Position numbers and translations under genes: made by a program
Shown here: positions 11,430-17,200 of the stretch, one piece after another
Position numbering within the stretch: the first letter of the stretch is position 1
Layout of the letters: the number at the start of each line of letters is the position of its first letter
The notes under the pieces: generated by a model
Database searches by the model: none
What the model was told of the DNA's origin: nothing
Seen by the model: only the letters and a program-made list of their open reading frames with translations
From: Vicugna vicugna
Taxonomy: Eukaryota
Reading direction: 5' to 3'
DNA: 64,000 nt
Assembly: GCA_013265495.1 (NCBI GenBank)
Contig: MU058198.1
Location: forward strand, 7,393,779 to 7,457,778

Positions 11430-12620
11430 TGGTCCGAGTTGGCAGCTGCAATGCAGCCCCAGCGGCAGGTTCAGTGGTGGAGGATAAAGACGCTCTGCCG
11501 CGGGACAAGCGCGCAACCTCCAGGGAGACTACATTTCCCAGTTTGCCTTGCGCTTCAGGCAGCGCCCTACGCTAGCACGCGAGCCTCCTCGCTACCCCAA
11601 CCTCCAGTACTGTCTCTCGCGAGAGGACGGGCCGCGCCGGCGGTAACGATAGTGAGTTGTGGTGGTGGCGGTGGTGTTGGTGGTGGCGGCCGAGACGGCG
11701 GCGGCCATTTTGGTGAGGCCTCGGAAGCGGCGGCGGCGGTTCGCTGCGAGTAGCGTCTCCCATTTTTCCCACCCGCCGCCTGCATCTCCGTGGCGTGAGA
11801 GGAAGCAGTGGAAGCAAGGCGGTGGCAGTAGCCGTGGGCCCCAGGGGAATTTAAAGGCCGCGAAGGCGGCAGCCAAGAGGGGGCCCTCCCCCCTCCTCGG
11901 CGGGAGGGGGGGTGGTGCGCACGCCCCCGAGGACGCAGGTAAGGAGAGGGAGACAAGATGGCGGACGTCCCGCAGTTCCCCCTCCCCTGACTGGTGACTG
12001 CGCGCGCATCTTTCCGCCATCGCCTCCCCTCCCACCTTCCCGGGGTGCTGCGCGCGCACCTTCGGCCGGGGCCCCGGGGCCGGTGCGCGAGGCTGTCGGC
12101 GCGCGCCCATAGAGACAGGTTGAGGGGGACCAGGCCGGCCGGCACTGGACCCGGGCGCGTCTCTTCTCCCCTCCCGCCTGTCTGCGCACGCGTGCCTGAG
12201 CGAGCAAGCGAGCCCTGAGAGAACGGACCCAGGTGCGCTCCTGCCCGCCCACCAACCCCAGCCCCCCCCAAAGGGGCGCGCGGGAAGAGGAAGGGGGGCG
12301 TGGGACGAGTAGTCGGGGCGCGCGCCCACCGTATCCATTCAGGAGCCAGGACCTGGCGGCACGAGCCCTCCCTTGTCTCAGCCTTTCGCGGTCTGCTGGG
12401 GTTGGGGGGAGCTCCCTAACGGGCAGGGATGAGAGGCTTTCCAGCCCTGCGACCCTTGTGTGCGTGGGTTTGGGTTCTGGCGGGAGCCCCCGGGCGGTGC
12501 GCGCAGCCGGCTCTCTCCGCCTCCAGGCGCGCACGCGCGGGCCCCTCCCCCAATCTGTCGCACAAGTTGGGTGGGGTGGGAGTCCAGGAGGGGGCGGGGC
12601 TACCTTAGGGCTAGTGGCAA
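11430..12620 (+). promoter_or_regulatory. SRCAP: SRCAP CpG-island promoter with a non-coding first exon (donor CAG|GTAAGG at 11938; second candidate donor CAG|GTGCGC at 12232)
   Basis: Very GC- and CpG-dense. Motifs: ZNF143/SBS ACTACATTTCCCAGTTTGCCTTGCG 11528-11552; palindrome TCTCGCGAGA (BANP-type) 11615-11624; YY1-like GGCCATTTT 11703-11711 and AAGATGGCGG 11955-11964; NRF1-like TGCGCGCGCA 11999-12008 and 12049-12058. The exact TSS cannot be determined. Confidence 0.85.
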
Positions 12621-13386
12621 CCTCGGGCAGAGGTCAGGGGTCACGCTGGGTCAGGCTGTTGGGACAGGTTGGGAGACAGTGATAAAGCGTGAGGTCAAGA
12701 GTTTAAGCTTCTCGGATTCTGGTTAGCTCGAGTCCAGTGAGTCTGTTGTGGAGGAGGGAGTTAATCAAAGGCTGCACCGTGGTTAAGGAATTTCCTTAAA
12801 CACTGGGGAAACACTTCCGGGCCTTGTGTGGGTTTACTCTGCCTATTTCCGGGGTATAGTTCTTTGCTGTTCGGCCTTCCTCACATCTGACTGCTCCTCT
12901 AAAGCCTCCTGCTGTAGTTCTTGTTTGGGGAAGTGTCTCATGGTGCAGGTATACGAGTCGTAGGGCCCAGTCCTGAGGAAGGGTAGATTATCATATGTTC
13001 ACACCTCACTGGAAAGGAGAGCAGGCAGCCAGCACCTTCTGAGCTTCTGAATGTGACAGCTTTTTTGGCTTTGTTATTTGCTCTCCATTCAGTGGTTGGA
13101 ACCTTTTACACTTAAGCTTTTTAAACTTTTTTTTTTCTTGGCTTCACTTCTTTGCTTCTCCCCCTCCCAGCCAGAATCTCATGGGAATTCTGTTTTTACA
13201 AAACATGATTTGCTTTTGTTTTTCCAAAATGTGAGCTTTTCCTACTATGATAATTTTATTCAGCCTTTTAACTGATTTGGGTATATTTGAAAGCCTCAAA
13301 AGTTGGTGTGGAGAAGGTTTTGATGGGTATTGTTAAATGTGGATTGGTTCCTCACTGCTGTTTTCCTCCCCTACTTTTTGTTTTAG

Positions 13387-13460
13387 GCGTGATTCCCCTC
13401 AGTACGGCGGCACCGTGGAAGTACAGACTTTCACAGGGGGTGTGGTCTCAGCTCACACAG
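13387..13460 (+). other. SRCAP: SRCAP 5' leader exon 2 (74 nt)
   Basis: Polypyrimidine tract plus TTTTAG acceptor and CAG|GTGAGG donor. The next exon starts at 14026, 209 nt before the ATG. The 74/209 layout matches the human gene as I recall it. Confidence 0.8.
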
Positions 13461-14234
13461 GTGAGGGCTCAGATACCATTTCTTGTTGATGTTAATGGGA
13501 GGGAAGTTTGAGATAATGATAGTGGTGCAACAGTGGAACTGGGACTATGGATACACAGATCTGATCATTTCGGCTCTCTCAAGGAGAGCAGCATTTTTCC
13601 GGGGTTTTGGCATCAGACTATCAAGATTTAAGACCTCCTTCTAGTTCTTTACTGTGTAACCTTATGCAGGTCATTTGGTCTCTTTGTGTTCTTAATTATT
13701 AACTTATGAAATATAAGAAACATTAGAATATAAGCTCCATTTAGGTCAGTGGTCTTTTCTGCATGGCTCCTTCCTCAACATGTAGAGGGAACTAAGTAAG
13801 CGTTTATTATGGTACAAAGAGGATCTGGTTTATAAGGTAGGTGTGAGGATTATAGAACACATCAAGTATGTACTCAGTAAAGTACCTGACACATAGTAGG
13901 TGCTCAAGAAATGTAAGCTATAATCATTGTGTTTATGTATCTTTATTCTTTAATGTTACTCCTGATTTTTGAAAGATTCTTTAATCTTTCTAAATCCTAT
14001 TTCTACTCTTTTTATCCTACTTTAGGTGCTCCAGAGGCCGGTGGACCTGAGCGGAGGCTGGGACGCCCTAGTGGGCCCCGGGCCCTGGAAGGCGGGTCCC
14101 GGTGGCCGGTGGCCCAGAATGAGGCCAGCTCCCAGCATGCCCTGCAGCCGGACGCCAGCCCCTCGGCCAGCAGCAGTGGTGACAACAACCCAGTCATTCT
14201 TCAGGCATCCAAAGAGGAGCCTGGGAGTGGGACC

Positions 14235-17200
14235 ATGCAGAGCAGCCCCTCCCCTGCTCACCCTCAGCTCCCAATCTTGCAAACACAGGTTTGAAAGTGG
14301 GGAAGGTTCCTTCTCTGCTTTTACTTTGTGGGTTGCTGACTCTGAGGCAGAAGAAATGTGGCAGGTCTTGGCCATATTTTCATAAATAGCCTGGGTAGCT
14401 GAGTTTGGAGAATCTTTAATGCTCATGTCAGGCCTGTTGGATACTAATATTCTGCTTAACATTAGTATATCGTTGATCTCTAAGAGTATGGAAACTCCTC
14501 ATTGCCTGAAAAAGGTTGAATTAACCCGGTTGGAAATGGAGTTTGGGACAAAAGCCTTCTAAGACTGTGTGCTTTGAGAACTGGAACAAGATTAGCATTA
14601 TGGATGGTGTGTAATGTTTATTTTCTCATACCAAGGGAGTGCAGGAGGTAGGGAAAGAAATCATGACTTTTGAAACTGGACAGACCTAGATTTGTGAACA
14701 GTAGACTTTTGATGGTTATAGTAGGTTTGATATTTGTAATTCTGAAAAACAAGGGAATTCTGTGACATATAGTCTTTGGTCATTTAGCTGAGGTAGGAAT
14801 TTGAATGGCATACTGTGAAGCTTGTGTGCCAGAGTGAATTTCATGAGTTCCCTTACGGTCCACATTTAAGTAGAACTTTGTTCTGTACTTTTTATTGCTT
14901 GTGCAGTACCTTGTAATACGTGGGTGTTTAAGAACAGTGACCAATCCTCTCCTTTTCTTCCCGCTTTCAGTAAAGGAAACTACCAAGACTTTTTGTTTGT
15001 TTGTTTTTAATGGAGGTACTGGGGATTGAATCCAGGACCTTGTGCATGCTAAGCATGTACTCTGCCACTGAGCTCTTCCTCCCTGCTAAGAATGGTGATG
15101 AACATAAAGAGGTTTAGGTGATCTAGGACTTTTTTGATGTGATTTGGATTTGGTGGAGGCTTAAATTTACTTGCATAGATGAATCTGCCATACTGGCTGT
15201 GAAAAGGAAGGAAAAATAGGGAATTGTTTATATGAGTGAAATGATTGAGGTCCTGAAAGGATCATTAAAATTTGAAGTCATACGCTATAGTAGTAGTCTT
15301 GAATTTGAGAACTATGTAAATGTCAGGCTACAATTCCTCTTGCATGCCAAGTGTTTACTGGAAACATGGCTTTGCCTCCTTGAGCACCTTATTAAAACTT
15401 ATTAAATCCCAAGTGCTGTGTTTATAAAAATGAGGTTGATACCTTACTCCAGAGTTTTTTCTTGTGAAGACTGAATAAAATAATATGCTTAAATCCCCTG
15501 GTAGAGTGCTGCTAAGAATTCATTTTATCTGTCATTTCCCTCTTTTCTAGATGGTGTCGGACGGCATGACAGGCAGCAATCCTGTGTCCCCTGCCTCATC
15601 CAGTTCCCCAGCCTCTAGTGGGGCAGGTGGCATCTCCCCGCAGCATATAGCTCAAGATTCCTCTTTGGATGGACCTCCAGGGCCCCCAGATGGTGCCACA
15701 GTGCCCCTGGAGGGGTTTAACCTACCCCAGGCTGCTGACCTGGCTAACAAGGGCCCAAAGTGGGAGAAGAGCCATGCTGAGATTGCAGAGCAAGCCAAAC
15801 ATGTATGTATTAGAAAGACCTGTGAGGCTTCTTGGGATTCTTTTTCCCTGAACTCGTATGTCTCATGGGTATTTTACATTTCTTTCCTTATCATTGATTT
15901 AGAATATAGGCTCTGCCTTGACGTACATGCTCTTGAACAAGTTGCTTGAACTCTGAGCCTCATTTTCTTTTCTGTAGAATAGGGATGGTATAATAGTGTA
16001 TAGACTGTTAAAAGGTTTAAATTAAAGGAGAAAATAGATATGAAAGTACTTTGTAAGCTATGAGGCTCTTAAGAGTTACTGGTGTCTACTTCTCATTTGC
16101 TACTTACAGTCTCTGTTACACTTACTAGAAGTGTGTTCCCTGGGCAAGCAACATCAGCATTATCTGGAAACTTATTAGAAATGCAGATTCTTTGTATCCT
16201 TTTTTACCTACCCATTTAAAACTCTAAGGATGCGGCCCAGCACTTTGTCTGAAAAAGCACTCCAGATGATTCTGATGCATGCTCAAATTTGAGAGCCATT
16301 GATCTAATAACTATGTCTTTTCTTGATGCTTCCTTCACCATCAGGCCATATAGTTCCCTCTCTCATCTGTGACTGTTAGTTCTTCTGATTTAGTGTTTGT
16401 CAGGAGAGGACAAGGGTAATGAGGGCAGTTGTCCTGAGTTTTTAAGTCACTTCTGTTAAATATAAATTTCAAGAGCTTTTATTTTTCTTCTTATGAGATA
16501 TAATCAATATAAAGACAGTGATATCTTTTGTTTTGTTTGTTTTTAGTGGGGAGGTAATTAGGTTTATTTATTTATTACTACTATTTTTATTTAATGGAGG
16601 TACTGGGGATCAAACCCATGACCTCATGCATGCTAAACTAAGCATGTGCTCTGCCACTGAGCTATACTCTCCCCCTAGACGATGTTACCTTTTTGTTATA
16701 CTGTTAATCTTTTTGTATATAATTTCAGTATTTTCTACAGGAAAAATACATTTTTATAAAAGTAGAACTTTTTGAAAACAAACAAGATTGTATAGATTGG
16801 ACTTTATAGCATATTTTTAAGCATGAACATACTTTTGTGTAAGTAGAATTCTACAGCAGTTAAGATCCCTTGTATCTAGAGTCCCTAAGGAAGCAATGCT
16901 CTCCCTGCTTCTCTGGGAAACTCCCTTTGGGATATATTTTCCAAAGTTTTGCCTACATTCATAGGGTATAGAGTGTGAAATAATGGAAAGAGCATTAAAT
17001 CTGGTACCTGGAGTCATTGGGCCAATTTTTAAGTCCCAGCCCTGTCACTTCCTATCTGTGTAATCTCAGATAAATCACTTAATATCCTGGATCTTTTTTT
17101 TTTCCCACTCACCTAAAGGGAGTATAATACTAGCTTGCAGGGTTAGGATGTGAACTCAAGACACGCATAAAACACGCCGTCCAATCAGTGCCTATACCTA

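Follow-up and report, generated by a model that had tools for sequence, protein, structure and literature searches.

A probable conserved, GUG-initiated N-terminal extension of the H2A.Z-depositing remodeller SRCAP

Organization of the SRCAP 5′ end

We found the 5′ end of SRCAP, which codes for the catalytic subunit of an H2A.Z-depositing remodeller and is a human disease gene for Floating-Harbor syndrome and a related neurodevelopmental disorder, in the window, i.e., the whole 64,000-nucleotide stretch of Vicugna vicugna DNA analyzed here (contig MU058198.1), to which all positions below refer. The reading frame continues upstream of the annotated start, and this candidate extension together with the first 102 canonical residues is identical to the gene models of Camelus ferus and C. 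dromedarius. The leader and the beginning of the coding region display the following features:

11832..11938, + strand: 3′ part of leader exon 1, open from the TAG at 11829 up to the donor at 11938
13387..13460, + strand: leader exon 2 (74 nt) with its splice sites, the donor matching the consensus at 8/9 positions
13406..13420, + strand: Kozak context and GTG (13415-13417), the proposed start, with C at −4, A at −3, G at +4 and A at +5
13415..13460, + strand: extension codons 1-15 and the first base of codon 16, in exon 2
14026..14288, + strand: exon 3, joined by the 13460^14026 junction
14026..14234, + strand: extension codons 16-85, in exon 3, predicted to be disordered
14046..14063, + strand: motif PERRLG, invariant in 13/13 aligned sequences including two distant orthologues
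14115..14144, + strand: motif QNEA-S-QHAL, invariant including the distant orthologues; both out-of-frame AUGs, with their A at −3, are embedded in its codons
14119..14121, + strand: out-of-frame AUG 1, with A at −3 and A at +4
14137..14139, + strand: out-of-frame AUG 2, with A at −3 and C at +4, sharing its frame with AUG 1
14235..14237, + strand: annotated AUG (MQSS...), with A at −3 and C at +4; residue 1 of human SRCAP in the PDB
15567..15569, + strand: TGA in exon 4 at which the overlapping ORF terminates; shares bases with the ATG of canonical Met24 (15566)

The initial annotation had proposed that a GUG in strong context adds 85 residues to SRCAP, and the layout that it described is borne out. 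The context of the GTG, with its A at −3 and G at +4, is near-perfect, matching 7/9 of the upstream positions of the Kozak consensus in addition to G at +4. Splicing at 13460^14026 would place it in frame with the ATG at 14235 over 255 nt (85 codons) that contain no stop, and the translation is identical to the one originally given. When the donor at 11938 is used, the frame is open for 130 codons upstream of the annotated ATG, as claimed, its 5′ limit being the TAG at 11829. We likewise recovered no AUG ahead of the GUG in the candidate leader exons (none in 11600-11938 or exon 2), and no in-frame upstream AUG occurs across 11600-11938, exon 2 and exon 3; in-frame ATGs do exist in the intron. 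The 3′ part of exon 1 contains neither an ATG nor an in-frame near-cognate codon of the common kinds, and the GTG at 13415 is both the earliest common near-cognate codon of its frame and the one in the best context there. The two out-of-frame AUGs said to lie between the GUG and the annotated AUG are the ATGs at 14119 and 14137, which open a single 62-codon frame running over the annotated AUG to the TGA at 15567-15569. Both splices have counterparts elsewhere: the exon 1-2 junction is crossed by transcript-type ORFs of another mammal (P0094 and P0096), and a junction of the 13460^14026 type by transcript-type ORFs of other mammals. Exons 2 and 3 are each present in one copy in their own genome, where no retrocopy was found.

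Further features were observed around exon 1 and in intron 3. Motifs at 11704 and 11955, which we take to be YY1-like sites, flank the exon 1 donor in a CpG island, and additional donor-like sites (7/9) lie at 11651, 11993 and 12232. An ATG at ~11451-11477 gives, by eye, the first nine residues of the C. dromedarius model P0048, whose first exon, with its ATG upstream of the CpG island core, is probably a prediction that supplies an AUG to an open frame. The sole Rfam match, tRNA-like with 39.7 bits, lies in intron 3 (15011-15082, − strand) and is most likely a tRNA-derived SINE.

Chance expectation in a GC-rich leader

The leader has a GC content of 68%, and an open frame of at least 85 codons arises in 18-23% of 5000 dinucleotide shuffles of it. 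An open frame with a strong-context near-cognate codon is seen in 8% of the shuffles, and 1% contain a Kozak match of 7/9 or better, in frame and with G at +4. Openness alone is therefore within chance (p ~0.2), so that the sequence of one genome is only mildly unusual, with the quality of the context mildly beyond chance; it is the cross-species comparison, and not single-genome openness, that makes this a case of interest. These figures bear on a rival explanation that we consider unlikely but by no means negligible, namely that the leader is conserved yet essentially non-coding, under regulatory constraint exerted chiefly through two repressing upstream AUGs, with GUG initiation as minor noise: the openness of the frame by itself is compatible with such a leader, whereas the Kozak match (p ~0.01) is less readily so.

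Conservation among placental mammals

Protein searches (4 matches among 351 candidates, 10 among 79 and 8 from a search of representatives) together with cluster look-ups yielded 100 proteins in total, 53 of which contain the central motif. Three of the eight representatives matches (P0058, P0059 and P0063) turned out to be repetitive and unrelated, and were excluded. The motif-bearing proteins comprise human-identical, rat, deer-mouse, bat, seal, anteater and camel types; a quick tree, in which short rows are misplaced, served only to place unnamed proteins near named ones. All 53 proteins covering the segment keep the frame unbroken, with no stop or frameshift, in searches that can return open frames only and never frameshifted orthologues. 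Twenty-four of them begin at the GUG position and 16 read T-V-E-V-Q through it; the rest begin two codons after the GUG (3) or at codon 44 (4), or are unspliced genomic ORFs (6). The later starts count against the GUG reading. The context is likewise retained, since T-V-E, which corresponds to A at −3, GTN and G at +4, is present in 16/16 read-through proteins. Two of the refuting observations named in the initial annotation, stops or frameshifts in the segment and loss of the GTG context, were not encountered among these proteins. Judged from these proteins (the 24 starts and the 16/16 T-V-E), both the GUG codon and its context are kept in placentals.

Forty-three of the proteins provide 19 distinct extension sequences, all of 84-85 codons with the frame intact, which differ from the camel sequence at 0-12 sites, as against 0-10 in the first 102 canonical residues; indels in the placental extensions are of single codons only. 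P0021 matches human SRCAP of the PDB over 258/258 downstream residues and carries the full extension, while the deposited sequence of 21 PDB entries begins at the annotated Met. Other extension-bearing ORFs are identical over 102/102 residues to rat, Peromyscus and Myotis SRCAP and have their called start 85 codons earlier than the NCBI models of these species, which begin at MQS; the called start is therefore unlikely to be an ATG. In addition, the residue read as M in P0055 is V in its cluster mate P0094, pointing to GTG as the start codon at this position. We infer that the starts written as M are GTG codons, which the ORF caller appears to accept. The NCBI models of camels, seal, Fukomys, Miniopterus and Tamandua cross the segment but start at differing upstream Met residues, a pattern that would be typical of a missed non-AUG start. 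Two of these predictions, P0006 and P0019, are the seal and Fukomys models of the SRCAP N-terminus, both reading through the extension; the seal model carries the name 'WAS/WASL-interacting protein family member 1-like', and that of Fukomys is fused to ~440 residues from another gene, presumably fibrosin-like.

Conservation does not stop at the GUG: the 45 codons upstream of it are conserved too (e.g., 43/45 in seal, by eye), which is a point in favor of a conserved non-coding leader, and P0094 has a whole-codon deletion in this upstream part. Alternatively, the extension might be translated from an AUG carried by a different mRNA form, with either a 5′-extended exon 2 or an unannotated cassette exon at ~13171-13230. 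The relevant features are:

13128-13230: candidate cassette exon region, with a long pyrimidine tract, tandem AG acceptors at 13169 and 13173 and a 7/9 donor at 13230
13337..13339, + strand: in-frame ATG in the tail of intron 1, weak (T at −3 and T at +4), directly after a TAA and 26 codons before the GTG

The ATG at 13337 is in frame and open, the Miniopterus and Tamandua RefSeq models start at a matching M-W, and an ATG at 13181 or 13205 in the predicted cassette exon would splice in frame with the extension. Yet the former ATG, usable only if exon 2 is extended 5′, combines T at −3 and T at +4 with a location immediately ahead of the branch-point and pyrimidine tract; no retrieved Logan ORF begins at it, as against 24 that begin at the GUG position; P0094 and P0096 read in from exon 1; and the cassette exon is itself a predicted candidate. 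An AUG start on a different transcript is accordingly a quite improbable account of the open frame.

Distant orthologues and invariant motifs

Two more divergent types of unspliced exon-3 ORFs, P0061/P0064 and P0062, show 56% identity over the best stretch and 59% with each other. They cover exon 3 only, in which the frame, the acceptor phase and the donor position are retained as read from the protein, and end in an MQT/MQS-type sequence at the donor. Since the canonical part of exon 3 is nearly invariant among placentals, these ORFs probably come from non-placental vertebrates. Their gaps are whole codons (one, and ~5-6), and they leave 19 invariant residues in the extension and 10 in the canonical exon-3 part. 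The Met of MQS (M86 of the extended protein) is invariant in 13/13 aligned sequences, the distant orthologues included. A profile search for spliced non-mammalian forms returned, from 8000 scored candidates, only three known mammalian proteins. In a metagenome scan for orthologous DNA, none of 587 pattern matches by protein was confirmed, and a 20-base exon 2 pattern gave no match.

The constraint on the extension peptide appears to be moderate and concentrated in PERRLG and QNEA-S-QHAL. The two motifs differ in what they imply. The invariant Q-N-E and Q-H-A codons are exactly those that form the two upstream AUGs with A at −3; as the most invariant motif thus carries both AUGs, part of the conservation may be regulatory, and for this motif regulatory constraint, as invoked for a non-coding leader, explains the invariance as well as peptide constraint does. 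PERRLG, however, lies upstream of both AUGs, which therefore do not account for its conservation. It is accompanied there by three further invariant residues, and every indel spans whole codons, one such being the single-codon gap that the distant orthologues have upstream of the AUGs, all of which argues against a purely non-coding leader.

Protein-level tests of selection on the extension

Protein-based proxies for selection gave mixed signals. Variable sites are about as frequent in the extension (29/85) as in the canonical N-terminus (31/102; p=0.64). DNA-level simulations at the divergence of the distant orthologues, in gap-free blocks, contain a stop in 72-76% of cases. In substitution tests on gap-free blocks, with the simulations that stayed open as the comparison, the substitutions of P0061 are more conservative than simulated, its score being reached by 4/145, 4/154 and 2/121 (about 2-3%), while for P0062 the same gap-free test is not significant (27/188, 22/194 and 20/152 reach the score, i.e., 11-14%). 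Among placentals the changes in the extension fall on codon positions 1 and 2 in the ratio 16:18, which equals the neutral ratio, versus 27:11 in the canonical part (p=0.054). The placental substitutions in the extension thus look relaxed, and this neutral-like spectrum is what a conserved non-coding leader would lead one to expect.

RNA structure is unsupported as a cause of the conservation: among 60-nt windows that start up to 180 nt after the GTG, none has a folding z better than −1.6, only 1/19 windows, ~200 nt after the GTG, has z below −2, and Rfam recognizes no family in the leader. The lack of such a fold or family within this range counts against the non-coding reading. At the protein level, AlphaFold gives the extension and the first ~88 canonical residues pLDDT below 50 and no fold, neither query found a usable match in the ESM Atlas, and Pfam recognizes nothing in the distant ORFs or in either of two frames of exon 3. 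The likeliest role of the peptide, which we propose with low confidence, would be that of a flexible tail with two short motifs that bind partners or affect localization.

The +1 frame is likewise open over the leader and the beginning of the coding region, as in POLG/POLGARF, where two open frames run over the leader and the coding start; for SRCAP this is seen in one genome. Hence, the selected product could in principle be the +1 frame, started at the ACG at 13404 or at the two AUGs, though we rate such dual coding as very improbable. This frame is open through the whole leader, and in this one genome the ACG at 13404 has A at −3 and G at +4. Moreover, in canonical codons 1-24 (14235-15569; codons 86-109 of the extended frame), 7/7 substitutions are at first positions and would be silent in the +1 frame, albeit small numbers. 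However, 7-11% of synonymous reshuffles across the 109 codons also leave the +1 frame open, the +1 reading of exon 3 is among those lacking a Pfam match, and in codons 47-85 only 10/20 changes, as deduced from proteins, sit at the +1 wobble position, compared with an assumption of 80% (p=0.003). Unlike what POLGARF would suggest, then, the SRCAP substitution pattern does not favor the +1 frame.

Comparison with known non-AUG starts

The proposed arrangement has several counterparts. In Ivanov et al. 2011 (PMC3105428), conserved non-AUG extensions of human genes, e.g., that of the GUG-started HDGF, have a stop-free in-frame leader as does SRCAP, and such extensions share with it a near-cognate codon that is conserved and lies in good context, as well as out-of-frame AUGs ahead of the annotated start. 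The latter follow the non-AUG start in 21/42 of the conserved cases of that study, which also states that they can make the non-AUG start dominant; HDGF, unlike SRCAP, is without an intervening AUG. A further likeness is offered by the GUG of EIF4G2 (DAP5) and the CUG of R3HCC1, after which out-of-frame AUGs shield the in-frame AUG that comes next; the GUG of EIF4G2 works at ~30% of an AUG (PMC9789052). In this sole-start type, however, the downstream AUG is dispensable or variable, whereas M86 of SRCAP is the invariant residue described above. The conservation of the downstream Met even in the distant orthologues, with A at −3, makes two forms likelier than a sole start. The GTG extensions of SFPQ and FXR2, GENCODE-annotated (PMC11317171), are mammal-wide and belong to nuclear or RNA-binding proteins, like that of SRCAP; they differ in having Ribo-seq or peptide support, that of SRCAP being a prediction from sequence conservation.

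The SRCAP extension is apparently unreported within the literature searched. Full-text searches of openly available papers found nothing on non-AUG, near-cognate or GUG initiation of SRCAP; the sole match pairing SRCAP with non-AUG concerns C9orf72, and none of those listed for SRCAP with N-terminal extension or uORF is about its initiation. SRCAP is not in the 177-gene PhyloCSF list (addendum table of PMC9789052), nor does it appear in the main text and the supplementary files searched of that paper, including its PhyloCSF and Ribo-seq sets; that study retained top-ranked extensions only, and none that overlapped annotated coding exons. SRCAP is further absent from a proteomic set of 192 regions, from those parts of the PMC11317171 supplement and text that were searched, and from the supplementary files searched of PMC6886504 and PMC4245810, and is not named in the main text of PMC3105428. 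The PMC5749180 files searched lack SRCAP altogether and are hence uninformative. Absence from the published sets searched would fit an essentially non-coding leader.

A model for SRCAP initiation and its implications

Taken as a whole, we consider it probable that SRCAP has a conserved GUG-initiated N-terminal extension of 85 residues. The candidacy of the GUG as an SRCAP start, which the initial annotation had advanced as potentially significant, is supported by conservation, from which initiation itself and the proportion of SRCAP that starts at the GUG are extrapolated. We posit that ribosomes scanning exons 1-2 would meet no AUG (as seen for the splice path used) and that a fraction of them would initiate at the GUG in its near-optimal context, C at −4, A at −3 and G at +4 each being reported to boost non-AUG initiation efficiency (PMC5778536). 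The product would be SRCAP with a disordered extension of 85 residues (~8.6 kDa). Ribosomes leaking past the GUG would reach the two AUGs with A at −3 of the overlapping 62-codon frame and be largely lost to the short form; the layout is as observed above, and the effect on ribosomes is what the rules of leaky scanning predict. Both the long and the annotated form would be produced, the former possibly in large proportion, and start-codon stringency may set the total output of SRCAP. If one assumes, rather than measures, initiation at the GUG by 10-30% of ribosomes and capture of 70-90% at each AUG, the annotated AUG would receive ~1-8% of them. A stronger version, in which the GUG is the main SRCAP start in amniotes or more widely and the annotated AUG is mostly shielded by the overlapping ORF, is possible but doubtful.

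The class of mechanism is known, and what is new is the gene, SRCAP. The conserved 85-residue front end, if real, would mean changes to the reference protein, to expression constructs and to how variants in the 5′ leader are read, and would make the amount of a dosage-sensitive remodeller depend on start-codon selection. Were the GUG the main start, the protein of 3230 residues on which structures and clinical numbering are based would be without its true N-terminus, variants currently assigned to the 5′ UTR would turn into start-loss, nonsense or frameshift alleles, and SRCAP dosage would be tuned by the stringency of start-codon selection.
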